Position numbers and translations under genes: made by a program
Assembly: GCA_965230915.1 (NCBI GenBank)
Contig: OZ246395.1
Span: 792,935-856,934, forward strand
Length of the DNA: 64,000 bases
From: an uncultured Candidatus Saccharibacteria bacterium
GTDB lineage: Bacteria > Patescibacteriota > WWE3 > 2-01-FULL-39-13
Reading direction: 5' to 3'
Notes under the pieces: generated by a model
Database searches by the model: none
What the model was told of the DNA's origin: nothing
What the model saw: the letters and a program-made list of their open reading frames with translations, nothing else
Shown: positions 13,466 through 50,349 of the stretch, piece after piece
Layout: every line of letters begins with the position of its first letter
How positions within the stretch are numbered: position 1 is the first letter of the stretch

Positions 13466-13501
13466 TGGGCGTATTATAAACCCTATAGTAGCAGATGTCA
13501 A
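13466..13501 (-). promoter_or_regulatory. Consensus sigma70-like promoter (TTGACA-17-TATAAT) for the LPVTG protein gene
   Basis: On the minus strand the -35 is at 13496-13501 and the -10 at 13473-13478. A CCCTATAG motif sits in the spacer. Confidence 0.55.
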
Positions 13502-16500
13502 GTCTTATAGCGCCTTGACCCATAGAAGCTCAGTATACCATAAATCGTCGACAAAACCGCAAGGAATAGGGCAAATACGAGGTATCCCCCTATTTGCAAT
13601 AACTGCGGCCAGAAAATTATAGCGTAATTTGATATATCCTCTTGATTATCTATATGCCAACCGTTAGCCCAGTTATTATACAAAAAATGGCTTGATTTAG
13701 GCGTTTTACAGAAGCCGGGGGAAACTATCCCTAAAAAACAGCTATTTAGGTCCAATAGTACCCACCCATTATCAAATGATTGATTTAGCACTAAATTAAG
13801 GCCTTTTTCGAGGTTTGCGCCAGTTAGGTCAATATTATATTGATATAAAGCCTTTTTCGTTACGGTAATTTGGTCGGCACTTGTAACTAGGTTATTGCCT
13901 AGATCTTTTATTGCAACCTCTTTAAACCATGCATATGGAAGATACTTAACATCAACGCCATATAGGTTGTTTTGGGTCGGAATTCGCCCAATTGAAGAGT
14001 TATTTAAGCTTATATTTACGCCCCCAGCACTTGTGTACGAAGGCAGTAAATAAGATTCTTTGCCTCCATTTAACCTTTCTTGTAAAAGACATTTACCTAT
14101 ATTTATCCCCCAGAAACAGACGTCGAAGCCCTGGCCGCTCAATTTTTCGGTGTCAAAAGTTACCATATAGCTGGCGTTTGTATTTATAATCGATGATTCT
14201 AAGGTGTCGCAAGAAATAGCGTCTTCTGCATAATATTGATAAGCGTCACGTCCTCCTAAATTGATCAAATCGCGTTTGTAGCTTTTTTCGCTAAATTCGT
14301 CGCAACTTCCTACCTGGGAATTGTATTTTTTACTTCCAGCCAAGTAATTAGATGAAAGTTCATCATACTCGGGTAATTTCACCTTTAGTGGAAAATCCGA
14401 CGCTTTTATTGAAATATTCTTTTCTAATCCCCTTAAGGCTGGATTTAATAATTTACGGACACTTTTAACATCAAATCTTTCGATTTTTATATTTTTGAAT
14501 TGTCCAGATACTGCTGCGTTTTGATCAGTAGAAGCCAGAACCAAAACAAACCTGACAACCTCGGGATGATCTATCAAAACATAATCTTCATATGAGTTAA
14601 ATCCTTCAACCGATAATTCTGGACGACTTTTATATTGTTGGTTATGACACTCACCGGTCTGTGTATCACTTAAACAATACATCGGAACTGCCGCATCGGA
14701 ATTTTTATAATCAAATGAAATTTTATATATTACAGAAGACGAATTACTAATTCGATCTTCGAAATTTAGACACCCTGTTAAGCCATCTTCGGTTTCGAGG
14801 CCGACACTTTTTTCGGATTCATTATAAATTTTGCCGACTCCGCCTTCCCCGCCACTACAGTCAGTTGCAACTGCAGAATATGATGTGTCGCTATAATCAA
14901 AAATTCCGGAATTAGTTTGGCTGAATTCTACAATATCAGATGACTCATCAATTAATCCCTGAAATTTCAAATCATTAGATTTTAATAAAACATTATTTAT
15001 TAGAATTTGGTTTGCTCCGGTTGAAATCGCAGGAAATAAATCTTGCGGAACATTGGTGAAGATTGCATCGCCCTTATTATTGTAAATTTCCGGATATATA
15101 TACTTAACCTGCAATTGAGAGTTCTGCAAACTAAATTCAACCGGAATGGCTTCTCTTCTAGATGCAAATGGAATACTTACCGCATAAGTTTTGTTAGGAT
15201 CACTTTTTGCATCATTTTGTATATTTATTTCAAATTCTTTTGAATCATTTAATTTATTTAAATCGACTGAATCAAAAATATTATTTTGATAATAATCGAC
15301 GACCTTCGCTACATAGTTAGTGTCGTAGTATGAATAATCATCTTCATAATTAATTTCACGAGTGGGAACAATATCTTTTGGAATTTCTATATAATTTTCT
15401 GAAATAGTTGGGTTTCTAAAATCATAAACCTCGATATTTCCGAATGTACTTGAAAGTTTTAGATCTTTAGTTTTGCTTAATAATTGTGAAGTCTCTTTAT
15501 AAAATAAAGATTGAGGAGTATTCGGAGAAATTATGTTTTTATCCAAAATCACATAAGACACATCATATTTCTTTAGCAAATACTGAAGTAACTCTTGATC
15601 TTCGTTATAAATCGCATATTGCAGCTCTGTATAAAATTGCTCATTCGCCGGATGCCATCTATCAAAATCGCGGGTAACAAATGATTGAGCTAAACCAAAC
15701 CACGCAAAACCGGCACCCTGATAGCCTTCGCTCCCCCAATCATAATATTGCCACCCGTATAAACTGTTTGCGGGTAAATATACAATTCTTTTGTTCGGAT
15801 TTTCCTTTTCGAATTTATCAAATAGATTTCGATATTCGATCGGAAACTTAATTTGCATTTCTTTTGAAATTAAATTTCCCGTAAAAAATGGATACATATA
15901 TAAGATTGGCAATGCAATCAAAACCCATAAAATTGTCTTTTTAATTTGCGGAGTTATTTTATTTGTAAGGTCCAGTAAGAAAATAATCCCAACGACAAAG
16001 AATAAGCTGTAGCCGAATTGTAATAAGATAGAAAATTTCGAATATGGAAATCTAAGTCCTTCTCTAAATAGTTCAAAGTGTTCTCGTAAGTAATACCAAA
16101 TCGGAGCCAAAATTCCGTTTGCACCAATAACCATAAAAAGCCATAAACCGAAAACTGGAATTAGCGAGATCAAAACTTTTTTATTTTTTAAAATTGATGC
16201 AACTATCCCAACTATAATAATCGCGAAAAATAAAAGTCCGATAAATAGCACTAACGGATTCGCCATATAACCGCGCCAAAAATCCATTAGGTATCCGTTT
16301 TGTCCTGTTGTGTATTTATAGTCGAGCCACCCAAATAAAAATCCTCTTAAAATCGGAAAATCCAACCATGTTCCCCATTTGGTGCTGTATAAAAATGCTT
16401 CTTCGGAAAATAAACTGTTAATTTTTGATGCCGAGACCGAATCGGAATAGTTTTTTATGTAATATAGATTTGGAAGAATCCAATAGAGATTTAGTAAAAT

Positions 16501-17196
16501 GAATGCTGCTCCAATATATATAGATCGCAACAAAACTTTTATTCGATCATTACTTATTAGTAAGTAAACAAATAAAAACCCTGCAACCGAGCCAATTAGG
16601 GCATAATATAAAACCGGTGCATAACCTTGTGGAGTTCCCAAGAATATAAACAAACACAGCAATAAATAATCTTTTAATTTGGCTTTTCGGATAAATTTTA
16701 AAACATACAAAAATATCCAAGGAAGCACCATGAACTGAGCATTAAACATTTCAAATGGGACAAAGAAGATTTGAAGTGTACCCAGATTAAAGATGTAAAA
16801 AGATGTGGCCAAAAGCGCCAACAAATTTTTATGCGGACGATGTTTAAATAGATATTTACCCAAAAAGTACATTCCCAGCGAACCTATTAAAAGGGTCAAA
16901 AAAAAGTATGAATATCGCAAAATCGAAACCGGCATTACAAAAGAAGCAAGCCATAGATAAATAAATCGTGGAATGTCTGACGCATGAGCGTGTCCACCGG
17001 CTGTACCTAATCCCTGGTATTCGTTCCAAACGCCGAAAAATTGTCTTTGGAAATTTATGCCGAAATTGAATTCATCGCTTAAGCTATCCCAGCCTAAAAG
17101 CCATGTACCAGAAATATGGTTGGCAAAGGCTAATATTAATACGACCACAGAAATGGCAATAGGATATAAAAACCGACGTGGAAGATCCGCCTTCAT
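13498..17196 (-). CDS. Giant GT-C-fold membrane glycosyltransferase-like protein (YfhO/PMT-like N-terminal TM domain plus an ~800-aa extracytoplasmic domain)
   Basis: 1232 aa. The N-terminal ~450 aa carry 12 or more TM helices. The gene is directly downstream of a DPM-synthase-like GT2 gene. Confidence 0.55.
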   Translation of the reverse strand: MKADLPRRFLYPIAISVVVLILAFANHISGTWLLGWDSLSDEFNFGINFQRQFFGVWNEYQGLGTAGGHAHASDIPRFIYLWLASFVMPVSILRYSYFFLTLLIGSLGMYFLGKYLFKHRPHKNLLALLATSFYIFNLGTLQIFFVPFEMFNAQFMVLPWIFLYVLKFIRKAKLKDYLLLCLFIFLGTPQGYAPVLYYALIGSVAGFLFVYLLISNDRIKVLLRSIYIGAAFILLNLYWILPNLYYIKNYSDSVSASKINSLFSEEAFLYSTKWGTWLDFPILRGFLFGWLDYKYTTGQNGYLMDFWRGYMANPLVLFIGLLFFAIIIVGIVASILKNKKVLISLIPVFGLWLFMVIGANGILAPIWYYLREHFELFREGLRFPYSKFSILLQFGYSLFFVVGIIFLLDLTNKITPQIKKTILWVLIALPILYMYPFFTGNLISKEMQIKFPIEYRNLFDKFEKENPNKRIVYLPANSLYGWQYYDWGSEGYQGAGFAWFGLAQSFVTRDFDRWHPANEQFYTELQYAIYNEDQELLQYLLKKYDVSYVILDKNIISPNTPQSLFYKETSQLLSKTKDLKLSSTFGNIEVYDFRNPTISENYIEIPKDIVPTREINYEDDYSYYDTNYVAKVVDYYQNNIFDSVDLNKLNDSKEFEINIQNDAKSDPNKTYAVSIPFASRREAIPVEFSLQNSQLQVKYIYPEIYNNKGDAIFTNVPQDLFPAISTGANQILINNVLLKSNDLKFQGLIDESSDIVEFSQTNSGIFDYSDTSYSAVATDCSGGEGGVGKIYNESEKSVGLETEDGLTGCLNFEDRISNSSSVIYKISFDYKNSDAAVPMYCLSDTQTGECHNQQYKSRPELSVEGFNSYEDYVLIDHPEVVRFVLVLASTDQNAAVSGQFKNIKIERFDVKSVRKLLNPALRGLEKNISIKASDFPLKVKLPEYDELSSNYLAGSKKYNSQVGSCDEFSEKSYKRDLINLGGRDAYQYYAEDAISCDTLESSIINTNASYMVTFDTEKLSGQGFDVCFWGINIGKCLLQERLNGGKESYLLPSYTSAGGVNISLNNSSIGRIPTQNNLYGVDVKYLPYAWFKEVAIKDLGNNLVTSADQITVTKKALYQYNIDLTGANLEKGLNLVLNQSFDNGWVLLDLNSCFLGIVSPGFCKTPKSSHFLYNNWANGWHIDNQEDISNYAIIFWPQLLQIGGYLVFALFLAVLSTIYGILSFYGSRRYKT

Positions 17197-17230
17197 TACT
17201 AAAGTGTACTTTAATTATGGAGATTAGACA

Positions 17231-17265
17231 CGAATCAATCCCTACCAAGCAGGGATTGAAATTCG
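17231..17265. terminator. Stem-loop (CAATCCCT/AGGGATTG, extendable to 13 bp) between the GT2 and GT-C genes; possible attenuator
   Basis: Seen in the sequence. There is no strong U-tract, so read-through is likely. Confidence 0.35.
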
Positions 17266-17269
17266 TTAC

Positions 17270-18046
17270 TTAAGGAAGTACTGCTAATTTAGCTTGTTTT
17301 GTAAGCCCAAATTTAGGCATACTTTCTTTAGCTAATAAGTAACTTAATATGAAAGTGTCTCTGACAGCTTTAAAAATAACTTTTAGATTACTTCCGGTAG
17401 AAGATCCAAATTGTCTTTTATAGTGGTTAACTCCGATTTGTTTAAATTTGTAACCGTTTCTATATGACTTTAATAAAAATTCAGTTGTGACCATAGCCCC
17501 ATCACTAACTAATGGGCTGGCAGCAACAATAACTTCTTTTCTTATTAATTTAAAAGCACAATCAATATCTCTTATTGATCTTGGGAATCCTAAAAAGATT
17601 CTATTCCAGACTTTTAGAGTATCGGCTAACAATTTTCTTTTGAACCCTTCCGCTCTGACTTTTCTATAACCAATAACAAGGTCATTATTTTTAGCAAAAG
17701 GAATGAATTTTGTGATTTCGTTTAAATCAAATTGTAAATCTCCGTCGCTAAAAAATACCCAATCATATTTGGCTTCTTTAAAACCTCTTTTTACGGCTCC
17801 TCCGTATCCTTTGTTTCTTTGAGATACTAATCTCACAGAAGGATATTTCGCCTCTAATTTTTTAGCAATTTCTCTTGTTTTGTCTTTACTACCATCGTTT
17901 ACTAAAACGATCTCGAATTTTTCAGCTACTTTTGGGAAAACTTTTAATGATTCGGCGACTAGTTTTTCTACATTTGCTTCCTCGTTGTATAGAGGAAAGA
18001 AGACTGAAAGTCCTTTAAGTTTTAGGGTAGGTTTACTTACTTTCAT
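17270..18046 (-). CDS. GT2 polyprenol-phosphate sugar synthase (dolichol-phosphate mannosyltransferase-like)
   Basis: 258 aa with the motifs LYNEE, VLVNDGSKDKT and FSDGDLQ typical of the DPM1/Ppm1 family. A -10-like TACCAT box lies 6 nt before the ATG, so the transcript may be leaderless. Confidence 0.8.
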   Translation of the reverse strand: MKVSKPTLKLKGLSVFFPLYNEEANVEKLVAESLKVFPKVAEKFEIVLVNDGSKDKTREIAKKLEAKYPSVRLVSQRNKGYGGAVKRGFKEAKYDWVFFSDGDLQFDLNEITKFIPFAKNNDLVIGYRKVRAEGFKRKLLADTLKVWNRIFLGFPRSIRDIDCAFKLIRKEVIVAASPLVSDGAMVTTEFLLKSYRNGYKFKQIGVNHYKRQFGSSTGSNLKVIFKAVRDTFILSYLLAKESMPKFGLTKQAKLAVLP

Positions 18047-18128
18047 AGACCTATGGTAACAAGCTATAGGGTATGTGTCAAGCCCAAAAGTGGACTTAAA
18101 AATAGCCTATAAATTGAGTGAAATAAGT

Positions 18129-18771: not shown

Positions 18772-19905
18772 CTACCTCACGACATCGGTTGTGGCGATTG
18801 CCAACACCTCGTTGCCGGAGATAACCGCGATGCGCACATGCACGACGTTGCATCCCATGGGGACGGAACAATTCGCGCCAGCGTTCGCTGCGGTTGGTTT
18901 GTTAAGGACTGTATCCCGATTGAGCATATTGCCCGTAACGTGAGACATTCCCGCCCAAATGGCCTGAGGGAGATATTCACCCCACCAGTACCGACCCCAA
19001 ACCGTAAACCCGCTGTCAACGTGTTGATCTTCATACGAAGACGTAACGTTGCCAACGTTAATGATCATGAGCGCGCAACCGTCGCCGGTGTCCTGCTCGC
19101 CGTCACCATCTGTGTCTTTGGTGCTACCAATACAAGTCCCTAACGGGGCGATGTTGTAGTCACCGGTGATGATACGGTAATGCTGCGCCGGAGTGACAAT
19201 GTCACACAACTCTTCCTGCTGGCAAAACGATGATTCGGCCATGCCGTATTCCAAACCTTGAGAGGCTGGGTACGTCAAGTTCGGGTTCACCACGTTGTCA
19301 ACATTCGGAAACTGCTTCCAGATCCCCAAATCCAGGTTATACCAAGGCCAGGCCTTGATATGCTCAGGAGCGAGGTTGGTGTAAGACACCGCCCATTGCC
19401 CTTGTGGCAAATTCGGTAAAACAACTGCTGCTTGCGCTGATGGCGATTGCGGCATCGACGCTTGGGTTAAACCTCCAACTGCTGCGGCACTTACTTCGCC
19501 TGTCGGGCTAGACAGATTAAAAGCATCTGTCGTAGGCACGGCGGCTACCGTCTGCGGCGTTGCTGTCGGAACCAAGATCACCTCGCTCGTAGGCGCGGCT
19601 GCAACTGCTTGCGCGGTTGCCGTTGGAACCAAAACTGGCGCTGCACCATTCGCTAGAGGAGCTTGTTGCGACACACTCGTCGGTGCACTGACTGACGGCA
19701 CTGATCCCCCAGGCTGGTTAGCCGGATTCACAATTGTCGTCGGCGTCGGCGCGACCTCAAGAGTCATAACGCTGCCAAGCTTGGCTTCGGGCTGGTTGGG
19801 CGCTGCTGTCTGGTTAATACTCCATATGGCAAGCCCTCCAATCACGAAGACCAAAATCCCTGTTAACACGATTGTTGCCAATCGGCGTTGCTCAGGTGTA
19901 CTCAT
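18772..19905 (-). CDS. Membrane-anchored exported protein with a Pro/Ala/Thr/Val-rich repeat linker and a Cys-containing C-terminal domain (DTDGDGEQDTGDGC calcium-binding-like motif)
   Basis: 377 aa, GC-rich. The terminal codons have GC-rich third positions. Confidence 0.5.
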   Translation of the reverse strand: MSTPEQRRLATIVLTGILVFVIGGLAIWSINQTAAPNQPEAKLGSVMTLEVAPTPTTIVNPANQPGGSVPSVSAPTSVSQQAPLANGAAPVLVPTATAQAVAAAPTSEVILVPTATPQTVAAVPTTDAFNLSSPTGEVSAAAVGGLTQASMPQSPSAQAAVVLPNLPQGQWAVSYTNLAPEHIKAWPWYNLDLGIWKQFPNVDNVVNPNLTYPASQGLEYGMAESSFCQQEELCDIVTPAQHYRIITGDYNIAPLGTCIGSTKDTDGDGEQDTGDGCALMIINVGNVTSSYEDQHVDSGFTVWGRYWWGEYLPQAIWAGMSHVTGNMLNRDTVLNKPTAANAGANCSVPMGCNVVHVRIAVISGNEVLAIATTDVVR

Positions 19906-20053: not shown

Positions 20054-20289
20054 TATTTTTGTTTGTGTTCGTCATATGAAATCTGCCTTTTCTCAAGAGC
20101 CGTAGCTAAGAGAGTAACAGCGTCATATTATTTGAAAGTGCTTCCTTAAAAGCTAATTTTAAGGAGCTTTAGGCCAACAAGTTAAACTTCTTGGCTCTTT
20201 AGGAATGCCCTTTTTAGACCTCCCGAAAGATGCTCGAATTATACTATAGGACTCGTAAATTGTCAATGGGGGCAAGGGTTTTCTAGCTT

Positions 20290-21594
20290 TTAGGACTTTA
20301 GCTTACCATTAATAGCAGTCATGGTATGTCGGCTATTGTGGCCAATTCCTTTGGCTTGAACCATCGATATTTTTTCGCCAGTAAAGGAGTCATTTGGCTG
20401 ATCTAAAGACATGGCTGTTGGGTAGCTATGTCCAGTTAAGCCAGGATTACTCCATACTGCAGACAGGGGTTGCGGATATTTTATAACAAGTTCACCTTCA
20501 CTCCAAGAGATTCCGTCAGCAGATTTAGAAGCGCAAACTCCTACGTTGGTTTGGAAGGTAGAAATAAACTCACCACGCTTAGTGTTGTAACTAATTCCCG
20601 GCAAGGCGGCATAACCTGCGCCAGGTATAGATGCGGGAGGAGTTATTACTGGCTGCAGATCTGGGGTTTCCCCGGGCTGCATAACTTTAAATCCATCTTT
20701 TGTGTAATGTTCTAATGCTCCAATCGTGTTTCCAATTAATGGCAACCTGGCCATGAAAATTTGATCAACAGTGTTAAATTTAGCTTTTGATTCTTGAGGA
20801 ATCCACTCGATGTAATAAAGCAAAATTTGTTCTTGGCCTGTATTTGAATCTTGAACTTTTATTGCGTGCGGCTGACCCGCTCCTGTAACTTCTCGACCTG
20901 GTTGTGAATGTTCACGTCCAGTAATTAATTGGCCCATCGGCTGGAATGTTTTTCCGTTTTGAGATTGGGCTAGACCAACTGAAGCAGTGAACCCAGCTCC
21001 GTTGCCAGGATTGATATGCTGCTCGTTGTGAGTAAAGCCAAGGTAGCCTCCATTAAACTCAACAACTGAAGTTACTGCACAATATCCGTTTCGATAAGTT
21101 TCGTTTGGATCTCTAGTAATTGCAGGTACAATTGCATTTTGTTCATTAGTTTCTGGTCTAAAACCTTTTTTTGAGTCCCATAGATATGGGAACGATCCTT
21201 GAATGCCAGACATAATTCCTGAAACAAACATGCGTTTTGTTTCGCCATCTTCTGCTGTTATAAATGGAACATGACCATCGGGGGTCCATTCCATTCCGGG
21301 CGTGGCTAGTGCGCGTTCACCGTGTTCAAATTCAAAAAAACTATTTTCGGGAAATTCCAATTCTGTTTCTTGTGCAAGAAATTGTTCGAAAGGTTGTTGT
21401 GGTTCAATCGCGACTTCGGCATCTTGCACAGCCGCTTCTGGTTGATTTTGAGATGACCCAAGCGTAGCTGCTGCCAACGTTGCAACAGCGGTTCTTCCGG
21501 CAAGTTTTAAGAAATCACGTCGTGAATAATTTGGCTCTGGATTTGGGTTTATGGTGTTTATCTGATTATTTTCGTTTTCGTTAGGTTCAACCAT
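20290..21594 (-). CDS. Tat-signal exported protein, paralog 1 of 2 (possible beta-propeller glycosidase-like, unverified)
   Basis: 434 aa with an RRDFLK twin-arginine motif. It is clearly paralogous to 21608..22870 (shared VSGI..G.QGS.PY.W, TGAGQP.AIKV and E..G..WS). Codon usage is native-like. Confidence 0.5.
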   Translation of the reverse strand: MVEPNENENNQINTINPNPEPNYSRRDFLKLAGRTAVATLAAATLGSSQNQPEAAVQDAEVAIEPQQPFEQFLAQETELEFPENSFFEFEHGERALATPGMEWTPDGHVPFITAEDGETKRMFVSGIMSGIQGSFPYLWDSKKGFRPETNEQNAIVPAITRDPNETYRNGYCAVTSVVEFNGGYLGFTHNEQHINPGNGAGFTASVGLAQSQNGKTFQPMGQLITGREHSQPGREVTGAGQPHAIKVQDSNTGQEQILLYYIEWIPQESKAKFNTVDQIFMARLPLIGNTIGALEHYTKDGFKVMQPGETPDLQPVITPPASIPGAGYAALPGISYNTKRGEFISTFQTNVGVCASKSADGISWSEGELVIKYPQPLSAVWSNPGLTGHSYPTAMSLDQPNDSFTGEKISMVQAKGIGHNSRHTMTAINGKLKS

Positions 21595-21607: not shown

Positions 21608-22870
21608 CTAGCCTTTTGTTTTTAGTTTTAGAGCAACCATAGAATGTTGTCTGGCTTGGCCTATTCCGCGAGCCATAAGCATTGTTAAATTTTCACCGGT
21701 AAAATTATCATTAACCTTTGAAAAATCTACTAACGAAGGGTAGCTATAACTTGAGTTCGCAGGGTTTTGCCATACTTCTGAAAGTGGAACTGGATATTTG
21801 ATAATAAGTTCAGCTGAACTCCAATCAAGACCATTTTCAGATTCCGTAGCACAAACTCCAAGATCTGTTTCAAATATAGCTAAAAGTTTTTGACGTTTAG
21901 TGTTGAATGTAACTCCAGCTAAAGCTGAATAATTTGCATTCGCAAGATTTCTTGGATAAATTAAGACCGGCTTAAGATTAGGCATGGCTTTCGCATTTAT
22001 TGTGTTTTTAAATCCACTTTGTGTCCAGCTTTCAACTGCACCTAGTCCATTATTTTGTAATTCTAATTTCGTTAAGTAAATTTCATTTGGAGTAAATTGA
22101 TCTCTCGGGAGCCATTCAGTGTAATAAATATATGCATAGTTTTTGCCAGTATTACGATCTGTAACTTTAATTGCACAAGGCTGACCTGCCCCAGTAACCT
22201 GTCCACCTGGGTAAAGAGTTCGTCTACCTAAAATAGGTGACCCAGCTGCGCGCTCAAATGTTAAACCTCCATCTTTTGAAACGACAATACCAACCGATGC
22301 CCGAAAACCTGCGCCATTTTGAGAAGCCACCCATTCTTCGTCATGAGTAAATCCGAGCAAACCATAATTAGTTTTAATAACTGAAGTTAGCCCCGAATAT
22401 CCATTTCGATAATATTGAGTGTAATCTGATTGATTTCTAGACACACTTGGAGCAAAGCCATTCGGTCCGATATATCTATTAAGACCTTCTGATGGCGACC
22501 AAGTATATGGATAAGAACCTTGAACTCCATTAACAATTCCGGAAACCCACATTAATTTTGAGCCATCGCTTTGTGTAATAAATGGAATTCGCCCATCTGG
22601 GTACCATCCCATTTGTGGCAAATCGACACGGTATTCGGTTTGTTCAAAATCAAAGTAGCTGTTTTCTTGAAATTCTAATTGGGTTTCTTGTTGGGGATAA
22701 AGCTCAAATGGAAATTGAGTTATTTCTTCTTCGTATGACTGTTGCTTATCTAAACCAAATGGAGCAATTAAAGCTGCCCTATGGGACTGATCGGTTAAAG
22801 CTCGAAATGTGTGGCCTAGAAATTCTCGTCTTGATAATTTTATTTCGTTTAAATCGGGTAGTTCTTCCAT
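21608..22870 (-). CDS. Tat-signal exported protein, paralog 2 of 2
   Basis: 420 aa with an SRREFLG motif, colinear with 20290..21594. Confidence 0.5.
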   Translation of the reverse strand: MEELPDLNEIKLSRREFLGHTFRALTDQSHRAALIAPFGLDKQQSYEEEITQFPFELYPQQETQLEFQENSYFDFEQTEYRVDLPQMGWYPDGRIPFITQSDGSKLMWVSGIVNGVQGSYPYTWSPSEGLNRYIGPNGFAPSVSRNQSDYTQYYRNGYSGLTSVIKTNYGLLGFTHDEEWVASQNGAGFRASVGIVVSKDGGLTFERAAGSPILGRRTLYPGGQVTGAGQPCAIKVTDRNTGKNYAYIYYTEWLPRDQFTPNEIYLTKLELQNNGLGAVESWTQSGFKNTINAKAMPNLKPVLIYPRNLANANYSALAGVTFNTKRQKLLAIFETDLGVCATESENGLDWSSAELIIKYPVPLSEVWQNPANSSYSYPSLVDFSKVNDNFTGENLTMLMARGIGQARQHSMVALKLKTKG

Positions 22871-23052: not shown

Positions 23053-23730
23053 TTATGGGTGAGGGATGACGACTATCGTCGAGATCACTTGGACGGATCC
23101 GTCTTGCAACGCAACCGTTGTCGTGATCGGGAAAGTCCCACCCTTCCAATCGAAATCGTGAGGCACGTAGCGATCGTTCGCCGCATAGTCAAACAAATAC
23201 GGATCTGATCCATCACCCCAATCAATCGAATGGCCTTGCAGAGCAACATCGTTCGTCTGAATGTGCAGGACAACCTGGTTATAGGTCGCACCAACAGTCG
23301 GCGTAACGGTGAAGCTGGGATACACTTCGTACGGCTCATCGACAACGATGTTAGATGTGCCGTTAGCGGTCATGGTGTAGTAGCGAACGCTGCCACAGCC
23401 CTTTTCACCCACACAACCGGTTGCCAACATCTTGTTGATCGCCGCCTTGATATTCGACTTCTGCAAGTCGTACGGAAGCCAGCTAAAGCCATAGGTTTTT
23501 TGACCAATGGTTGGCGCCGATGGGCAAGCAAGCACCTCGATAACCTGGCCCGTATTGGCGTCGTCATCTAGGGTCACAGTTTGAGCACCGTTCGCATAGG
23601 CACACGAAAGACTTACGTCTCCCGCGTAAAAATGCGAGGCGGTTTGCGCCTTGACGGGATAAGCCGAAAACAAGACTGCAACCAACGCAACGACTGCAAA
23701 ACCGAACTGCGAAATCAATTTGCGAAACAT
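23053..23730 (-). CDS. Secreted protein with a PKD-like C-terminal domain (WGDGS...HDFDW..G.F.ITTTV)
   Basis: 225 aa with a signal peptide. The region looks GC-rich (~50% by eye) and the 13 terminal codons have 8 G/C third positions. Confidence 0.5.
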   Translation of the reverse strand: MFRKLISQFGFAVVALVAVLFSAYPVKAQTASHFYAGDVSLSCAYANGAQTVTLDDDANTGQVIEVLACPSAPTIGQKTYGFSWLPYDLQKSNIKAAINKMLATGCVGEKGCGSVRYYTMTANGTSNIVVDEPYEVYPSFTVTPTVGATYNQVVLHIQTNDVALQGHSIDWGDGSDPYLFDYAANDRYVPHDFDWKGGTFPITTTVALQDGSVQVISTIVVIPHP

Positions 23731-24008: not shown

Positions 24009-25715
24009 TTAGTTGTTAACTACAGCCAAAGGCAGAAAGACGTAGTCTTTCGGCTGATTGGGCTTGAAATTCGGATCGACAACCTGCAGCATAACGCCGC
24101 ATTGCACGTCTCCTGCGGGAGATGTGATTGTGATGTTTGGCGCGTAAGCGGCCTTGCCAGTGTTCGTATCCCACGAGTAATCATGCGTGACGACTCCGTA
24201 ATCAATGCTGCCATTGATGGTCTCGATACGATACGGATCGCCCTGTCCGAAGTTGAGATAATGACTCACTTTCGAACCCTGCATAAGCTGATAGGCGTTG
24301 GCCCATTCGAGCTTGAACTGGAACCGATTAAACGGGTCACCTTCAAGGTGGCGGGCTTCCAACTTGCAAGTCGGCTCAGGCAACTCTTCGTCCATAACGA
24401 CTGCGACTTCACAATTGCGACCCGTGGTCTCGGCGACGATAAACAGCGTCGAGGTATAAACCTTGCCAGGTTCATACGGGTAGGTAAATGTGAAGCTACC
24501 TGTGCCACTGATGGCCGAGGTGATCGTGATGAACTTTGGATCGATCATGCTCTGACCGGAATACAGACTGTGATAATCGGCATCGGGCGAAGCGCCATCC
24601 CAAGAGTAGTCGAAGCGATACGTGACCGGGTCGATCTTTTGGGAAGTCATCGTGCATGTCGCGGGGCTTTCGGTGTCGACGCTTACGACAACCGACTCAT
24701 TCGATTCAACCGGATAAGGGCTGAACCAACTACGCGAAAACACTGTTACTGTTTGGACATCCTGCTTGTTAATACGGAAAGAGACATTGCGTGTTCCAGG
24801 CGTACAAGACAAACCTGTGACCGGCGCGCTCATCGGTTGGGGCTGGCACTCTGATGGATAATCGCTGAATGGCATTCCGCCTGCTGTTATCAGCATTGAG
24901 TTTGCGCCTTCAGGGGCCATCACGGTGACATTGACCAAATCCATGTAGCGGTAAGAACCGGCTTGAACCTGAATGACTGGCTTCGGCACTCGGCACTTTG
25001 GCGCGAGAATGTCTTGCGTCCAAACCACTGTGTTCGTTGAGTCCGAAATCGTTAAGGTGGTTGTTACTAACCCCGTCTCGATAAAATAGGCCTCAACATA
25101 GTTGCCAAACATATTCCCTTCTTCGGGTCCGTCCAACTGCCACTGAAAAATGCCTTGGTGGTTGCCCGCCAGGCCGTTGCAATTGGTGTTGACGAAAGCC
25201 GTATACACGCCAGTGTCGCGAATCTGATATTCCCAGTCCCATTGTGTGGAACTGTTCTGGATCGGATTCACGCCGACGTAAAACGGGGGCCGCACGTCGA
25301 TAGTCACGGGGAAGGTGTAATCCAATCCACCGAAATTATCGTAGTTTAGCCCAGCCTGATATAACGTAAGACCCGCGCCGTAAGCATAGCCGTGAGTAAA
25401 CTGCGGGCTGTCGCCATCGGTGTTCAGATACACGTCAAAAAAGGCTCCATCGCCGAACTCAAAGTTGTGGTATCCAGCTTCAGGAATGGGAGGACAATCC
25501 AATTCCCAACGGAAAACGTTGGGTTCTTGAATGACCTCTTGGTTGTTCACGCATTCGACCCCAGCGGCCTTAGCCGCAAACGGAATGCAAAAAGCGCCAA
25601 ACAAACCTGCTGCAAAAACCAACATCTTGATCAAATTGCGATACATCAGAATCTCTCTTTCTTCATACATTGTTAACAAAATTGGCCGAGCTAAATCTTC
25701 AATATAAAGATCCAA
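24009..25715 (-). CDS. Secreted multi-domain protein with PKD-like repeats
   Basis: The true start is probably the internal Met near 25643 (MYRNLIKMLVFAAG..., a signal peptide preceded by AAAGAGAGA). Its C-terminal domain (CKLEARHLEGDPFN...FGQGD...THDYSWD) is homologous to the C-terminal domain of 27825..28937. Confidence 0.5.
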   Translation of the reverse strand: MDLYIEDLARPILLTMYEEREILMYRNLIKMLVFAAGLFGAFCIPFAAKAAGVECVNNQEVIQEPNVFRWELDCPPIPEAGYHNFEFGDGAFFDVYLNTDGDSPQFTHGYAYGAGLTLYQAGLNYDNFGGLDYTFPVTIDVRPPFYVGVNPIQNSSTQWDWEYQIRDTGVYTAFVNTNCNGLAGNHQGIFQWQLDGPEEGNMFGNYVEAYFIETGLVTTTLTISDSTNTVVWTQDILAPKCRVPKPVIQVQAGSYRYMDLVNVTVMAPEGANSMLITAGGMPFSDYPSECQPQPMSAPVTGLSCTPGTRNVSFRINKQDVQTVTVFSRSWFSPYPVESNESVVVSVDTESPATCTMTSQKIDPVTYRFDYSWDGASPDADYHSLYSGQSMIDPKFITITSAISGTGSFTFTYPYEPGKVYTSTLFIVAETTGRNCEVAVVMDEELPEPTCKLEARHLEGDPFNRFQFKLEWANAYQLMQGSKVSHYLNFGQGDPYRIETINGSIDYGVVTHDYSWDTNTGKAAYAPNITITSPAGDVQCGVMLQVVDPNFKPNQPKDYVFLPLAVVNN

Positions 25716-27185: not shown

Positions 27186-27440
27186 GATTTCTCTCCTTCA
27201 TACGATAGGCCCAAGTCGGGCATAATACATAGATAACAAAATTAGCCAAATAGAGCCTTCGCCCCGTGGACATTTGGGGATAAAAATCAAAGGCTCAACA
27301 TGGCTAACTTTGCCGTGGAGAGAATGTAGCTAAATGCACGTATGACGTGTACTTGGAAAAAGAAATCCCGCGAAGGGAAATGATTTCGCTGTACTTTCAT
27401 ACTATATTAAGGAACTCTATCTCGGGTTAATTCCTTTGAT

Positions 27441-27550
27441 AGTTGAAGAGATTCCCATCCTGCCCAGTTGGAAATCTGCTTCAATCAGCAAACGAATCAA
27501 CGAATAGTTGAAGGGTTTCTCGTCCTGCCCAGTCGAGAAACCGCTTCAAG
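27441..27550. ncRNA. Tandem pair of hairpins with an identical 11-nt loop (TCCTGCCCAGT) and covarying stems; candidate structured RNA or leader element
   Basis: Hairpin 1 (27441-27485): AGTTGAAGAGATTCC...GGAAATCTGCTTCAAT. Hairpin 2 (27506-27550): AGTTGAAGGGTTTCTCG...CGAGAAACCGCTTCAAG. The outer helix is identical, the inner helix differs with compensatory changes, and both have a bulged G at the same position. Confidence 0.5.
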
Positions 27551-27685
27551 CATCCGTCGAACGAACTGCATATTATATATTAAAAAGGAGATTTTTGGCA
27601 GGAAACATTACTGCCTATAGTTAAAAGTTAGGCAAGTAAAGAGAGTGATTAACTCGGGATCCTGTCCATGTATCCCTTTCTTAAT

Positions 27686-27735
27686 CTGGCGATATTATAC
27701 AATTTTCAAACCCCAATGTCAATTGCTATAGGGTA
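27686..27735 (-). promoter_or_regulatory. Consensus promoter TTGACA-17-TATAAT on the minus strand, with an ATACCCTATAG motif directly upstream of the -35
   Basis: -35 at 27716-27721, -10 at 27693-27698, CTATAG at 27725-27730. Transcription from here would run through the tandem hairpins toward gene 25962..27185. Confidence 0.55.
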
Positions 27736-27753
27736 TTGGTAAGCCAAAAGAAA

Positions 27754-27812
27754 AGCCCGGGCTGTTTTTGATCTTTGAGATCTAGAAGCTTTTTGGCTTC
27801 AAACAGTCCGGG
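27754..27812. terminator. Terminator of gene 27825..28937 (stem GCCCGGGCTGTTTTTG / CAAACAGTCCGGGC with a large structured loop and a minus-strand U-tract)
   Basis: 15 nt after the stop codon. Seen in the sequence. Confidence 0.55.
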
Positions 27813-28937: not shown

Positions 28938-29136
28938 CGAAATCCTCTCTTTCTACGAGAAATTTAAGGGAAACAGTTATTTATTGATTTATTCAATGTA
29001 CAAGCATTTAGCTTATAAGCGCATATCATATATCAACCTATAGAAATAATCTATATTTTTATAGGATATCTAAGTTATTTTCTTTAATCTTTTTATAGAT
29101 CATATCGCATTAAAGATCGCCCACTATCCCATAGCG

Positions 29137-29165
29137 TTGACGACTACCCGGTTGAGTTGTAAAAT
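29137..29165 (+). promoter_or_regulatory. Sigma70-like promoter TTGACG-17-TAAAAT for gene 29202
   Basis: Seen in the sequence, and preceded by CCCATAGCG. Confidence 0.5.
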
Positions 29166-29963: not shown

Positions 29964-30136
29964 TCAAACCATTTCAAACTTTTCTCGAAGCTAATAAGTT
30001 CCTCGGCACAACCTTTACTGGGAAATTATATGTTTTCAGCCTGCGAAAGCTTCTATAAAAGTTTGAAATTTGTTTAAATAAATCAATAATAACCCACCCA
30101 CCGTATACCCTATAGTATTGACTATTCCGACGAAAA

Positions 30137-30517
30137 ATGCTAATATCATGCGCATATATAACTATCGCAGTTATTAATCGCACACTACGGAGAACTAAAA
30201 TGAGTTTCCCACACAACCCACATCTGGAATTTGCGGCAATTCTGCTGATGACCATTTCAGGTCTGATGGACGGGGTAGCCCTTTTTCAAATAAAAAGGTT
30301 AATATCGCCATTTGGCCTGATAAGCAGAGGTTTGCTAGGTTGTATTGTAGCGGTCCTATATTTGATTTCCGGGGGAAGCCTTCTCGGTACAGTAGTCTGG
30401 GCTATGCTAGGGCTAACTAAATTTGTTGCCTATCTAGCAATTTATGCGAAATTGTTTTACTTCAAAAAGCCGATCATATACCAGATTAGCGACCAAGAAA
30501 CGCTGATCGAACTATAA
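30137..30517 (+). CDS. Small 3-TM membrane protein (the real start may be the internal Met near 30200)
   Basis: ORF with hydrophobic segments, followed by a terminator. Confidence 0.35.
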   Translation: MLISCAYITIAVINRTLRRTKMSFPHNPHLEFAAILLMTISGLMDGVALFQIKRLISPFGLISRGLLGCIVAVLYLISGGSLLGTVVWAMLGLTKFVAYLAIYAKLFYFKKPIIYQISDQETLIEL

Positions 30518-32963: not shown

Positions 32964-33073
32964 TTCTTAATCCTCTCTTCATACAGTTTATTGGGTTGGT
33001 ATAGAACGGGCGTAATTGTAGGGTTTAAAATACTATAAGTCAACCGCTAACGGGCTTTTTGTAGATTGCTCTA

Positions 33074-34203: not shown

Positions 34204-34220
34204 ACTTTTATCATACCTGC

Positions 34221-34345
34221 TATAATTTCCCTATAGCAATGATCCTTATGACACGGGGGAGCTAGTTCGAAAACTGAGACATAAGCTGCTTCGGGCTAAC
34301 AGCCGAAGAAGCGAGGTGGCACCGCGCAATTTAGCGTCCTCGCAA
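34221..34345 (+). promoter_or_regulatory. Candidate T-box leader (Asp specifier) upstream of aspS
   Basis: A TATAAT box at 34221-34226. A Stem-I-like helix CTTATG...CATAAG has GAC-A at the specifier position (34278-34281). A strong hairpin at 34286-34313 follows, then the T-box sequence AGCGAGGTGGCACCGCG at 34310-34326. This folds as a canonical antiterminator: A1 GAGG/CCUC, 7-nt bulge UGGCACC, A2 GCGC-AAUUUA-GCGU. I could not find a clear downstream terminator or SD sequestrator. Confidence 0.45.
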
Positions 34346-36304: not shown

Positions 36305-36778
36305 TTGTTAATGAATTATATGGATCAAGATCAGACCTTAAGAATGCATAATTTAGGAATAATTCAAGGATACTCATATCGAGTTCTAGAAAATCATTTA
36401 GGCATCTTACTTAAAAAATATAATTTGCTAATTCCTGAATGGAAATTACTCGGGCTCATATTCGAAAACCCCAATTTAAAAATCACCCAACTCGCAAGCC
36501 AACTAAAAGTAGAAATTCCATTTATAACCCGTCTTGTAAATTCACTTACAAAAAAGCAAATGGTAAAAAAAGTGACACGCAACAAAGATTTACGAATACA
36601 GCTAGTTGAACTTACAGAAGAAACAAAAGTATTATTGCCTAAACTAGAAATCGAAGTCGGGATATTAATGAGAAATTTATTAGAAGGAATAACTTCGGAA
36701 GAACGAAGCGCATACATGAATGTATTACAAACTGTTATTAATAATGCAAAAAAAATAGAAAGATCAGAAGAACTTTAA
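36305..36778 (+). CDS. MarR-family transcriptional regulator
   Basis: 157 aa with a central wHTH ([28 protein letters not shown]). Confidence 0.7.
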
Positions 36779-40720: not shown

Positions 40721-40793
40721 ATTTTGGAATATATCACGTATGTGCTAAGTAGCCAAACTTTTACCGAAGATACATAAATTGATTGAAACGAAG

Positions 40794-40839
40794 GGGCCGG
40801 ACGCAACTTGTGAAAATTATAAAAAGTTGCGTCCGGCCC
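40794..40839 (-). terminator. Perfect 16-bp stem terminator (GGGCCGGACGCAACTT / AAGTTGCGTCCGGCCC)
   Basis: A U-rich run follows on the minus strand. It terminates transcripts coming from the 41.1-kb region. Confidence 0.7.
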
Positions 40840-41100
40840 AACTGCTAGCGGCGAAGGAGCATAATCAACCTTGCCAGCCAGGGAGGTGAACTTACAAACC
40901 TGGGAAGCGTGGCTTCAGAAACAAATAACGTCGGAACAATCCTTACGCTGGTCTTTCGCGCAAGAATCTTGTTATGCCGTGAGTCAACACGGGGACGACT
41001 CGTTCTTTGAACCATATTAGTCGGCATATCCGCAAAACCTTTCCGCCTTATCGAAGGCTTACAAAAAATCCCAACGCATGTTGAGAATTAGAAATATTTT
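40840..41100 (-). ncRNA. Candidate ~300-nt GC-rich small RNA, or a 3'UTR, of unknown family
   Basis: The region looks about 50% GC by eye in a low-GC genome. The minus-strand promoter TTGATT-17-AAAATA (approximately 41095-41125) and the strong terminator at 40794-40839 delimit it. The only ORF here is a 60-aa Arg-rich frame (40845..41027) of doubtful reality. Confidence 0.3.
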
Positions 41101-41128
41101 AAATTTATTTACAGGAAAATCAATAAGA

Positions 41129-46794: not shown

Positions 46795-47583
46795 CTAGTC
46801 TGTGTTCTCCAGCGCCGGCAAGTACAACTTGGACTGCACGACTCGCGTGTAGCTGAAGTAACCTCCCATCGGGCTGTAGCTCTGTTCGAGCACGCGGATC
46901 GTAACTGTGTACAATCCATCATCCTCGAAAATCAAAAGCATCGGGTCGGTCGCCACACTGCCACCTACTGGAACCGTAACATCCTTCAAATCAAAATGGA
47001 TGTCATTATCGGCCCCCGGGGGGTCAACAGTAACGACGACTTCTTCGGTGAATGGCTTGGGTCCCTGATTTGTGAGCCAAACTTCAAAGGTCATGGCCTC
47101 GTTGGTGCGGTCGATCTCGTGAACCAAAAAAGGCGTAACGCCTTCTTTCTTAACCAAAGGAACCTCGCGCGCCAACAAGGTGGACTCACCTGCACGCAGG
47201 GTAAAACCTACGTAAACATCGTCCATAATAAACTCCGGATAAACCGTCGCCGTATATGCGCCGGTCGGGCACACAATACCCTGTTCATCCTTGGCGTCGT
47301 ACTGGCATTCCTCGGGCCAATCCAAAAAGGAAAGATCGGTCTGCAATACGATTGGGTCACCTGCATCGTTCCCGCCACTAAAGGCAATGACCGCGGGTTG
47401 CCCCTCGACCATGTAGGCCTTGCCGTTGGCAAGATTAATCGAAGATGGCCCAGGGCCTACAACTTGTGCAGCAACCCCCTTACACCAGCAGATATACAAA
47501 AATCCGCCGGCCAGAAAGGCAATTAGGACACAAGCTCGGATAAATCGGTAACGCATTTCCATCGTTCTCTCCTTCATACACAT
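46795..47583 (-). CDS. Secreted protein with very high GC3 (foreign codon usage), unknown function
   Basis: 262 aa with a signal peptide. The terminal codons almost all end in G or C. The minus-strand promoter CCTATAGTGTTGACT-18-TAATTAT is near 47650-47690. Confidence 0.5.
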   Translation of the reverse strand: MCMKERTMEMRYRFIRACVLIAFLAGGFLYICWCKGVAAQVVGPGPSSINLANGKAYMVEGQPAVIAFSGGNDAGDPIVLQTDLSFLDWPEECQYDAKDEQGIVCPTGAYTATVYPEFIMDDVYVGFTLRAGESTLLAREVPLVKKEGVTPFLVHEIDRTNEAMTFEVWLTNQGPKPFTEEVVVTVDPPGADNDIHFDLKDVTVPVGGSVATDPMLLIFEDDGLYTVTIRVLEQSYSPMGGYFSYTRVVQSKLYLPALENTD

Positions 47584-47691
47584 GAACCGCTAGATATTTG
47601 AATATAACTGTACAAAATGAAAAAGCTGAATTAGCCCTTTCTGGGGCATAATTATGTCAGAAAATCGCGGGAAGTCAACACTATAGGCTGA

Positions 47692-48453: not shown

Positions 48454-48972
48454 TTGACTTGTGGTAGATTTCGTATCACAATTATTATAAATATGAAAAA
48501 TTTCCTGTCCAAAGTCCTGTTAGCAACTCTTGTAATTTTTTCTTTATCAGCAGGTTCTGCATTAGCAGCTTCCCTTACATTAACAAAAATCGGGTCACTA
48601 GATGTAGGTGGAAAGAAAATCTCAGGCCAATGGACATATGTATCCACAAATCCAACACTATATGGAACCGCTCCAGCTGGAGCTAGAGTTACCATCGTAA
48701 TCGACGGTACCGAAGCTCGCGAAGTAGCTGACGAAGAAGGTAATTGGCACCACTATTCAGAAAAGCTTACAAAAGGTAATCATGATATTAATATTTCCAT
48801 CGACGGCGAATCATTTGCGTTTAAGCTAAATACAGGCGGAGAAGCAGTCGAAACTACAGCTTCAGCAAATGGAGTTCCAGTTACTGGATCCTCTGATGTA
48901 TTTTTATACATGGCAATTTCTTCCGTGCTACTAATCGCAGGAGGATCACTCTTCTTACATAAAAGAAGATAA
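48454..48972 (+). CDS. Secreted protein with a sortase-like sorting signal (VPVTG, hydrophobic stretch, KRR)
   Basis: 172 aa with a signal peptide. The C-terminus is NGVPVTGSS...LLIAGGSLFLHKRR. Confidence 0.5.
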   Translation: MTCGRFRITIIINMKNFLSKVLLATLVIFSLSAGSALAASLTLTKIGSLDVGGKKISGQWTYVSTNPTLYGTAPAGARVTIVIDGTEAREVADEEGNWHHYSEKLTKGNHDINISIDGESFAFKLNTGGEAVETTASANGVPVTGSSDVFLYMAISSVLLIAGGSLFLHKRR

Positions 48973-48981
48973 TCTCAGATT

Positions 48982-49938: not shown

Positions 49939-50039
49939 TATATAAATTATAACTGGAAAAATTTATTTAGGGAGTAAAAATTTGCTAGCAGGAAAACTGG
50001 ATAGAAAGAAACACTTTCCAGTTTTCCTGCTACTGCGGG

Positions 50040-50225
50040 TTAGGTTGCCTTACCGGCCTTAGCTGTAGCTAACGGATACCAAATATCCCCGGTAGGACCT
50101 CTGCCCCATCTGGAGTTAAGAACATACGGGCCTTGGGCAGCTTGTGCCACAGGCTTATCCCTTGCTTCCTTTGCCTCATCAGACACATTCCGATCACTGT
50201 CTTTTCCATTTGTCGCCGTTGACAC
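50040..50225 (-). CDS. Small basic protein (about 61 aa, GTG start after AAGGAGA) in a high-GC patch
   Basis: I chose the GTG start from the SD position. The region looks GC-richer than its flanks by eye. Confidence 0.25.
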   Translation of the reverse strand: MSTATNGKDSDRNVSDEAKEARDKPVAQAAQGPYVLNSRWGRGPTGDIWYPLATAKAGKAT

Positions 50226-50321
50226 TTGTTTCTCTCCTTCGAGAATTGATCGACTCAAACCCACTGGTTTAAGTTTGTATATTTTAGCACAATTAAATAC
50301 CTCCGCCACACCATACTATAG

Positions 50322-50349
50322 GTTGACATCCTGGGTTTTTGTCTTATAC
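50322..50349 (+). promoter_or_regulatory. Promoter TTGACA-16-TATACT preceded by CATACTATAGG
   Basis: Seen in the sequence. It drives the small ORF at 50377. Confidence 0.5.

Follow-up and report, generated by a model that had tools for sequence, protein, structure and literature searches.

A short CCYATAG box at strong predicted promoters of a Patescibacteria lineage: distribution, targets and comparison with known promoter words

Operators of global repressors, such as LexA, Fur and the phage Arc/Mnt and MetJ-type proteins, are short words enriched in promoters, where they overlap or abut the core elements at varied positions. The element described here, a box with the sequence CCTATAG or sometimes CCCATAG (CC[T/C]ATAG), was found in a 64-kb stretch of contig OZ246395.1 (hereafter the window) from a small-genome bacterium of the Candidate Phyla Radiation (CPR)/Patescibacteria. 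It is distributed in the same manner and, like repressor operators, it is sometimes duplicated, is kept at orthologous promoters and marks a subset of genes. The box often reads CCTATAGT, has the palindromic core CTATAG and occasionally extends to a full palindrome, CCTATAGG, whose 8 bp we take to be the size of one MetJ-type box. Unlike such operators, it is only 7–8 bp long and mostly asymmetric, it keeps a fixed distance of 2–3 nt from the -35 hexamer when it lies upstream of it, and no cognate protein is known. Its sequence matches no operator found in our literature search.

Sites of the NarL/LuxR type consist of an asymmetric 7-bp unit used singly or in pairs, in either orientation and at variable promoter positions. 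The box resembles them in this use of a heptamer, although its sequence is unrelated to the NarL consensus TACYYMT and no response regulator has been identified. The proximal UP subsite (-46 to -38), to which the alpha C-terminal domain of RNA polymerase binds, coincides with the commonest slot of the box, which likewise accompanies the strongest promoters; the box, however, is a GC-flanked specific heptamer rather than a set of A/T tracts, occurs also in the spacer and in reversed orientation, and is absent from the rpoB promoter. Words read with the help of cofactors of RNA polymerase (the AGCA at -44 in Spx-dependent promoters, or methylated GANTC in the case of GcrA) are also short, lie at or in sigma-70-type promoters and belong to a promoter subset, but their sequence and spacing differ from those of the box, and we know of no Spx/GcrA-type cofactor in CPR bacteria. 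Finally, the reverse complement of the box, CTATAGG(G), is identical to positions -5 to +2/+3 of the T7, K11 and SP6 promoters, that is, to the T7-type initiation region (…CACTATAGGGAGA). This resemblance is coincidental, and the identification of the box as a T7-like promoter was rejected: such promoters are conserved over about 17–23 bp, from -17 to +6, whereas only CTATAGG(G) is shared here and the 12 nt upstream, which define those promoters, are unrelated among the copies. The literature search returned no description of this word, or of any promoter-associated regulatory motif in CPR bacteria, and yielded only T7-primer noise and general promoter papers.

The preliminary description of the window had proposed a k-mer count against a Markov background. 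Run on the intergenic DNA of the window, and unbiased in that the motif reported earlier was disregarded, this count places CCTATAG (= CTATAGG) first among all 7-mers (9 observed vs 1.06 expected under an order-2 Markov model, z 7.4), with CTATAG ranking first among the 6-mers. When two doubtful overlapping short open reading frames (ORFs) around 50.0–50.6 kb are taken as non-coding, the window holds 10 intergenic and 2 coding copies of CCTATAG (the latter at 12435 and 59530), a 42-fold difference in density (binomial P 1e-8). Longer forms are also repeated: CCCTATAG occurs six times vs 1.03 expected, a number reached in 0/100 shuffles; the exact 11-mer ATACCCTATAG is present in three copies (18064, 27726, 30105), accompanied by AAACCCTATAG at 13478; and CCTATAGTAT, the reverse complement of ATACTATAGG, is also present in three (20244, 30109, 50316). 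Words that differ from the box by one mismatch show no intergenic enrichment (intergenic/coding copies: CCAATAG 1/21, CCGATAG 0/8, CCTTTAG 1/17, CCTGTAG 0/6). CCCATAG is the variant that is itself enriched in intergenic DNA, and CCTATAGT has 12 intergenic copies vs 1 coding. The bare hexamer CTATAG, counted over the whole window, is not significantly over-represented (15 vs 11.2 expected); the signal resides in the CC-flanked form and in its location. The flank preference is roughly A-C/N-CCTATAG-T, with C, C and G invariant and a T preferred on the 3' side, and the information content of the box, a base-specific heptamer containing GC, is roughly 13 bits. The association with the -35 hexamer is equally apparent in counts, with CC[CT]ATAG-N2-3-TTGA observed 5 times in the window vs 0.10 expected, and TTGA found 0–4 nt downstream in 5 of the 12 intergenic copies vs 0.44 expected (P 4e-5).

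All eight copies listed in the preliminary description are present within a few nucleotides of where it had placed them, the exact positions of CCTATAG being 13482(+), 18064(-), 20244(-), 27726(-), 30109(+), 34230(+), 47681(-) and 50316(-). It had also mentioned two degenerate copies, one of which, at 29037, is in fact an exact CCTATAG (-), whereas the other, at 29128, is the CCCATAG variant (+). Copies beyond that list are CCTATAG at 27614, CCCATAG-N2-TTGAAT at 53435, variants of the CTTATAG type at 13504 and 33037, and the two coding copies mentioned above.

The same analysis was extended to relatives, whose syntenic loci were fetched via RecJ and SecD homologues, for a total sample of about 180 kb from roughly five lineages. 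The nearest named relative is a metagenome-assembled genome labelled 'uncultured Candidatus Saccharibacteria' (loci L094 and L001; RecJ 77%, SecD 82% identical), and the others are L007 and L092 (on one 72-kb contig; RecJ 79%), L009 and L093 (RecJ 70%) and L010 (RecJ 53%); more distant relatives are labelled WWE3 (RecJ about 52%). ORFs were called with a simple caller, promoters are consensus predictions, and transcription starts and gene starts are likewise predicted. In about 116 kb from the relatives, CCTATAG has 11 intergenic copies in 7.8 kb vs 8 coding copies in 108 kb, a roughly 19-fold difference in density (P 6e-9), CCCATAG has 5 vs 4 (P 1e-4), and TTGA lies 0–4 nt downstream in 8/15 intergenic copies (P 1e-8). 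Three WWE3-like loci (L011–L013) contain only 0.3–1.1 kb of intergenic DNA, too little for a motif test. In 2.9 million viral contigs, the arrangement CCTATAG-N2-3-TTGACW-N17-TATAAT is found at 31 loci, compared with 27 and 20 for two composition-matched controls; since these hits are no commoner than the controls, the link between box and promoter is lineage-specific. Thirteen of the 31 viral hits come from one phage family (IMG/VR contigs L014, L016, L019–L021, L026, L030, L032–L034, L038 and L043), in whose members one and the same perfect promoter, CCTATAGAACTTGACA-N17-TATAAT, precedes a conserved gene. As the hit count equals that of the composition-matched controls, this is a single conserved promoter unrelated to the CPR box family.

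Nearly all intergenic copies in the window lie within predicted sigma-70-type promoters, and all three of its perfect TTGACA-17-TATAAT promoters (13501, 20266, 27722) have a box. The commonest slot, in the orientation of transcription, is 2–3 nt upstream of TTGAC (27726, 29128, 30109, 47681, 53435), whereas other copies are flush with the -10 (20244), in the middle of the spacer (18064 forward, 13482 reversed), or reversed and flush with the -35 (50316, 29037). Altogether, positions before the -35 account for about 17 copies, the spacer or the edge of the -10 accounts for about 8, and a single copy is at a putative start site; 12/17 of the upstream copies are exactly 2–3 nt from the -35, corresponding to about -45 to -38, with a strong orientation bias. 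The box occupies both orientations, and some promoters are doubly boxed. The earlier placement of the CTATAG core near a -35 TTGAC or in the spacer is borne out. The individual sites are as follows.

13482..13488, minus strand: box CTATAGG (promoter strand) in the spacer of TTGACA-17-TATAAT (13501..13473), 3 nt before the -10; target, a DUF11/CLIPPER LPVTG surface-protein gene (12694-13422, minus strand).
13504..13510, minus strand: variant box CTATAAG (promoter strand), 2 nt upstream of the same -35, giving a double site; sequence gcgCTATAAGacTTGACA.
18064..18070, minus strand: CCTATAG in the spacer of TTGACA-17-TACCAT (18081..18053), 5 nt before the -10; target, a family 2 glycosyltransferase (GT2) gene (17270-18046) with a predicted leaderless promoter.
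20244..20250, minus strand: CCTATAG flush with the -10 (CCTATAG immediately followed by TATAAT) of the perfect promoter 20266..20238; target, after a 339-nt leader, a secreted-protein gene (18772-19905) with high GC content at third codon positions (GC3).
27614..27620, plus strand: CCTATAG in a leader, 12 nt upstream of a weaker promoter-like CTGCCA-18-TATAAT (27601..27572, minus strand); inverted relative to the 27726 copy, role uncertain.
27726..27732, minus strand: CCTATAG (within ATACCCTATAG), separated by 3 nt from the -35 that follows it in the perfect promoter 27722..27694; targets, beyond a conserved leader of 540 nt, the high-GC3 gene 25962-27185, which encodes a secreted protein, and probably two others of that kind, 24009-25715 and 23053-23730.
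29037..29043, minus strand: CTATAGG followed directly by TTGATA; the high-GC3 gene 27825-28937 starts about 100 nt downstream, and a good -10 was not found.
29128..29134, plus strand: variant CCCATAG, 2 nt upstream of TTGACG-17-TAAAAT (29137..29165); target, the gene of a 253-aa membrane-anchored acidic protein (29202-29963).
30109..30115, plus strand: CCTATAG (within ATACCCTATAG), 2 nt before TTGACT-17-TAATAT (30118..30146); downstream are an ORF for a small membrane protein and then recJ (30591-32279).
33015..33043, minus strand: promoter TTGACT-17-TACAAT with a degenerate box TTATAG starting in or next to the -35 (TTGACTTATAGT), a weak member; target, the high-GC3 secreted-protein gene 32520-32963.
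34230..34236, plus strand: CCTATAG, 3 nt after TATAAT, at the predicted 5' end of an aspS leader (gene 34433-35722) that resembles a T-box but scores below threshold.
47681..47687, minus strand: CCTATAG, 2 nt upstream of TTGACT-16-CATAAT (47678..47651); target, the high-GC3 secreted-protein gene 46795-47583.
50316..50322, plus strand: CTATAGG, reversed, flush with TTGACA-16-TATACT (50323..50350); a 64-aa high-GC3 ORF starts at 50380.
53435..53441, minus strand: variant CCCATAG, 2 nt upstream of TTGAAT-16-TATAAT (53432..53405); target, the high-GC3 membrane-protein gene 52976-53359.

The copy at aspS is identical in L007 and L003, but, because L010 has CCCAACAG at that place, it may be part of the leader and not a member of the box family. 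The leader itself (34108-34344, plus strand) contains GAGGTGGCACCGCG and gives a T-box match (RF00230) of 29.4 bits, compared with a gathering score of 93 (E 0.0026); L007 and L010 have a comparable leader.

Several other identities of the box were considered and rejected. A sigma-B-type -10 (GGGTAT, the reverse complement of ATACCC) lacks GTTTAA at the right distance, and only 3–4 sites have ATAC. If the box were itself a -35 or -10 hexamer read by an alternative sigma factor, a partner element should lie at a fixed distance, but there is none on either side, and a tandem upstream promoter using TATAGT as its -10 has no -35 partner. The spacers and flanks are unrelated, unlike those expected of a mobile promoter cassette, and the flush copies, which read TAG followed by TATAAT, have no TG at -15/-14 that would create an extended -10 (TGn/TRTG).

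The comparison with orthologous promoters in relatives, also suggested in the preliminary description, reveals that the box is kept as tightly as the promoter hexamers. In three sets of orthologues from three genomes each, the box reaches a pairwise identity of 94%, the -35 one of 89% and the -10 one of 96%, compared with 37% for the other promoter positions. Each orthologous promoter retains its own slot and orientation of the box across the genomes, and CCTATAG and CCCATAG interchange at the same promoter. In the DUF11/CLIPPER promoter, CTATAGG is found 3 nt before the -10 and in the same orientation in the window, in L092 (1816) and in L093 (350). The arrangement at the GT2 promoter (18064) recurs in its L009 orthologue (2810), with a double site in L007 (4795/4822), and the orthologue of the 20244 promoter, L009 4923, reads CCTATAG directly followed by TACAAT. 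The box located 3 nt before the -35 of the promoter of the 407-aa operon (27726) is retained at L007 8469 and L009 8264. The promoter of the gene encoding the 253-aa protein has CC[CT]ATAG-N2-TTGAC in three genomes (L007 9148, CCCATAGcgTTGACT; L009 9089, CCTATAGtcTTGACT), while the spacers have diverged. Intergenic promoters scoring at least 10/12 have a box in 4/4 cases in L007 and 4/4 in L009, and each of the perfect 12/12 promoters seen, of which the window has three and L009 and L010 have two apiece, is boxed. In the double-box promoters (L007 4817, L007 8469, L009 4944 and 13501 of the window), one copy precedes the -35 and the other abuts the -10, the two forming direct repeats 25–27 bp apart.

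The box is not a universal part of promoters and is limited to a subset of them. The rpoB promoter, TTGACA-17-TATATT, is conserved in L092–L094 and has no box, nor do the promoters of a DUF3048 gene (in the window and L092) and of a cupredoxin gene (in the window). In about 52 kb of housekeeping loci (L092–L094), the sole box is that of the DUF11 gene (L092, L093). Most genes of the window lack a Shine-Dalgarno sequence, and in 16/60 genes a TATAAT-like hexamer (5 or 6 of 6 matches), usually without a -35, ends 4–11 nt before the start codon (for example, at the gene starts 5871(-), 21594(-), 36218(-), 49938(-), 52177(+) and 54892(-)). Judged by this arrangement, such -10-only genes are probably leaderless, which suggests that leaderless mRNAs are widespread in the window.

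The genes predicted to be controlled by boxed promoters are those of the LPVTG surface protein, of the GT2 glycosyltransferase (with a gene for a 1232-aa membrane protein after it), of the acidic protein anchored in the membrane, and of a small membrane protein ahead of recJ, and a box is present at every high-GC3 secreted-protein gene or operon in the window, L007, L009 and L010. Functional labels of these targets are based on signal peptides and weak domain hits. Gene composition in the window is bimodal, with GC3 of 0.47–0.60 in the high class and 0.20–0.33 in all other genes. The high-GC3 genes are listed below.

Window: 18772-19905, 23053-23730, 24009-25715, 25962-27185, 27825-28937, 32520-32963, 46795-47583, 50380-50574 and 52976-53359.
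Relatives: L007 5008-6330 and 6836-7963; L009 3507-7622; L010 1-568.

The products of this class are secreted or membrane proteins without a family match, and the genes combine long leaders with GAGAGGA ribosome-binding sites and are richer in codons ending in G as well as in those ending in C. Orthologues within the class are only 34–40% identical, compared with 70–77% for RecJ and SecD, and the high-GC3 state is nonetheless kept in relatives. Plain codon optimisation for high expression was rejected as its explanation, with G- and C-ending codons both raised and rpoB, rpoC and rpsL having low GC3; the class is thus not simply that of highly expressed genes. One of its members, a 370-aa secreted protein (27825-28937, minus strand), has three internal repeats and no detectable homologue but itself among 5.8 billion clustered proteins, although it is related to the product of 24009-25715 within the window and also matches L009 6036-7622. 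Searches of Pfam and NCBIfam gave nothing for most target proteins, and an AlphaFold model of a 147-aa target, computed without an alignment, was unusable (predicted local distance difference test 43.6).

Two proteins of the window, encoded by 12694-13422 (minus strand) and 48454-48972 (plus strand), end with sortase-type cell-wall sorting signals (LPVTG/VPVTG, a hydrophobic stretch and a basic tail), and the first of them carries the DUF11/CLIPPER repeat. Two tandem paralogues of about 430 aa (20290-21594 and 21608-22870, minus strand), located between high-GC3 genes but with normal GC3, carry signal peptides of a twin-arginine-like type (RRDFLK, RREFLG) and match no family.

To our knowledge, almost nothing is known of transcriptional regulation in CPR/Patescibacteria, which are uncultivated and have few recognisable regulators. 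The sole CPR entry in a start-site survey of 49 species is Nanosynbacter lyticus, with 188 start sites (PMC12641261). As a kind, the element described here is well known, being either an operator of a regulon or an accessory element of promoters; new are this particular instance, its lineage and its coupling to a secreted-protein gene class of distinct composition. A conserved word locked to promoters offers a first means of approaching a regulon in a lineage of this kind. It predicts a set of co-controlled genes, those of secreted and surface proteins that evolve fast and could plausibly act in host interaction, and it provides a bait sequence in the search for a regulator. It also brings out a two-class architecture, with leaderless AT-rich genes on one side and, on the other, genes combining a box, consensus hexamers, a long leader and high GC3.

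We hold, with moderate confidence, that CC[T/C]ATAG is the operator of a lineage-specific DNA-binding regulator, probably an occluding repressor of very strong promoters. This reading is favoured because the slots and orientations vary, the copies are sometimes doubled, and they are conserved promoter by promoter and confined to a coherent promoter subset; varied slots, both orientations and paired copies are what operators typically show and would be unusual for an element that RNA polymerase reads. We infer that the box is bound by a protein other than RNA polymerase, which would act directly on near-consensus sigma-70-type promoters of a regulon consisting mainly of secreted, surface-anchored and envelope-modifying proteins. 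The copies lie on or against predicted promoter DNA that the polymerase must contact, at about -45 to -38 beside the -35, at -24 to -13 in the spacer, or at the start site. Promoters at or near consensus would need no activator, and repression by occlusion is the simplest mode of action because the core hexamers need no help; the boxed perfect 12/12 promoters fit strong promoters under negative control. The repression would be relieved under some condition, for example, upon contact with the host in an epibiotic lifestyle. Of the two regulatory roles mentioned in the preliminary description, a UP-like element or a site for a global regulator, the latter fits better, since the box occupies several slots in both orientations, may be doubled, is absent from the rpoB promoter and is a GC-containing heptamer. 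The UP-like role fits less well with a word that is not an A/T tract and is also found in the spacer and at the -10, outside the range of about -40 to -60 to which UP elements are confined, although 12/17 of the upstream copies are at the proximal UP position; what stands of both suggestions is that of a conserved cis element associated with promoters.

A number of observations weigh against the operator interpretation. The analysis found no candidate for the binding protein, and the window's one regulator gene, encoding a MarR protein (36305-36778), has no box in its own promoter; MarR proteins also bind longer sites, and a site of 7–8 bp is short for a classical dimeric helix-turn-helix repressor. 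The tight spacing of 2–3 nt (12/17) and the orientation bias of the upstream copies are not needed for occlusion and suggest a defined geometry with respect to RNA polymerase. Finally, the sample of about 180 kb is small, orthologous promoters are not independent observations, and the promoters and gene starts in it are predicted.

The same spacing supports a tentative alternative, in which the box would be read by the transcription machinery, either by the alpha C-terminal domain or a sigma surface or by a polymerase-bound cofactor similar to Spx or GcrA, and would mark a high-output class (box, TTGACA and TATAAT) where most genes use -10-only leaderless promoters. Most copies are oriented with transcription and are found exactly 2–3 nt upstream of the -35, which is the proximal UP subsite or the position of a class II activator, while the second commonest slot is flush with the other hexamer contacted by sigma (CCYATAG followed directly by TAYAAT, four promoters). 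The conservation of the box equals that of the -35 and -10, a box accompanies every intergenic promoter of L007 and L009 that scores at least 10/12 as well as both perfect promoters of L010, and the -10-only genes indicate that a separate promoter class exists. However, copies in the middle of the spacer, at differing helical phases, and reversed copies (DUF11, 50316) would be intolerable for a rigid polymerase contact, the strong conserved rpoB promoter and other promoters containing a -35 have no box, and a base-specific heptamer containing GC is unlike UP elements, which are described as A/T tracts (PMC12641261). A further reading, which we regard as rather unlikely, makes the box the signature of a second expression tier, a class composed of CCYATAG with a consensus -35 and a consensus -10 and read by a lineage-specific polymerase domain or cofactor. 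If that were true, the box class would be wired exclusively to fast-evolving secreted or host-interaction genes with twice the GC3, long structured leaders and Shine-Dalgarno sites, and the rest of the genome would run on -10-only, leaderless, AT-rich genes.

It is improbable that the CTATAG core is a DNA-methylation site through which the methylation state of the promoter tunes transcription, as in CcrM/GcrA control or Dam-sensitive promoters. The core is indeed a 6-bp palindrome such as many methyltransferases recognise, it tolerates both orientations and variable positions within promoters, and GcrA-type control relies on short methylation sites whose position in the promoter varies (PMC4647560). 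Yet the frequent CCCATAG breaks the palindrome while replacing CCTATAG at orthologous promoters, the asymmetric CC flank and the preferred 3' T are left unexplained, and CTATAG is neither avoided nor enriched over the whole window (15 vs 11.2). In addition, no DNA methyltransferase was seen, the two methyltransferase genes of the window looking like HemK/PrmC-type and small-molecule enzymes.

We consider it very improbable that the boxes are crossover sites of a recombinase inverting promoters in phase variation of surface proteins. The targets are indeed fast-evolving surface or secreted proteins, and the promoter 27722..27694 is bracketed by the inverted copies 27614 and 27726, but no other promoter is bracketed in this manner, the double copies are direct repeats 25–27 bp apart, and the orientation of orthologous promoters does not differ between any of the genomes sampled. 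Arms of 7 bp would also be very short for a recombinase site, and no recombinase gene was seen nearby.

The least credible explanations are a DNA-uptake signal for natural transformation, which the preliminary description had entertained on account of a ComM/YifB-like gene (6215-7720) and which would share with the box the over-representation of a short word, and a chance or compositional artefact: uptake is contradicted by the low density of 12 copies in 64 kb (0.19 per kb, and 0.035 per kb in coding DNA, vs about 1 per kb for DNA uptake sequences and uptake signal sequences), by the concentration of about 80% of copies in the 10% of DNA that is intergenic, and by their being locked to -35/-10 hexamers and unpaired in terminators (the one terminator-like hairpin close to a copy, 27745-27765, does not include the box), while chance is excluded by the shuffle, Markov and one-mismatch controls and by replication in relatives, and the stop codon that the word holds in one frame per strand could lower coding counts by at most a third, not 40-fold.

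The annotated genes of the window include SecDF, a ComM-like gene, YceG, RecJ, a non-discriminating aspartyl-tRNA synthetase, endonuclease V, MgtE and the single MarR regulator, and many proteins have no family match. The window has a GC content of about 35%, is about 90% coding and has no tRNA genes in its 64 kb. A scan of the whole window with Rfam at gathering thresholds gave no match, and a permissive scan of 19.8–34.5 kb gave only the weak T-box match.

The leader RNA downstream of the 27722 promoter, about 500 nt long, is conserved (about 27190-27693 of the window, minus strand; L007 7964-8440; L009 7623-8230) and has no Rfam match. It begins with AAGGGAUACAUGGACAGGAUCCC and contains two tandem long hairpins with an identical loop, ACUGGGCAGGA, on stems that are different but mutually compensating (folding free energy -25.7, z -5.3, and -18.8, z -2.7). 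These hairpins with GGA in the loop recall the binding sites of CsrA/RsmA. Another long perfect hairpin (49985-50030, GCAGGAAAACTGGA...TCCAGTTTTCCTGC) is located upstream of the 50316 box promoter, in a stretch with a GC content of 0.47 that also holds the two doubtful overlapping ORFs (50040-50309 and 50275-50574). Between two minus-strand genes, a gene-free stretch of 408 bp (40721-41128) without an Rfam hit contains a long near-perfect hairpin (region of GGGGCCGGACGCAACTTGTG...CAAGTTGCGTCCGGCCCC) that could be a non-coding RNA or a terminator.

Two other words are enriched in the intergenic DNA. TGGCTAA(C), next in rank after the box, has 8 copies vs 1.1 expected (12628, 27242, 27301, 35749, 35793, 37571, 37623 and 45544), often beside A/T runs between convergent genes and once as an inverted pair (35749/35793), and may be part of terminators. 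The word CAGAAACT/AGTTTCTG, with 4 intergenic copies vs 0.24 expected (4168, 13442, 25766 and 29188), is found in either orientation in short 5' untranslated regions, 10–35 nt before start codons.

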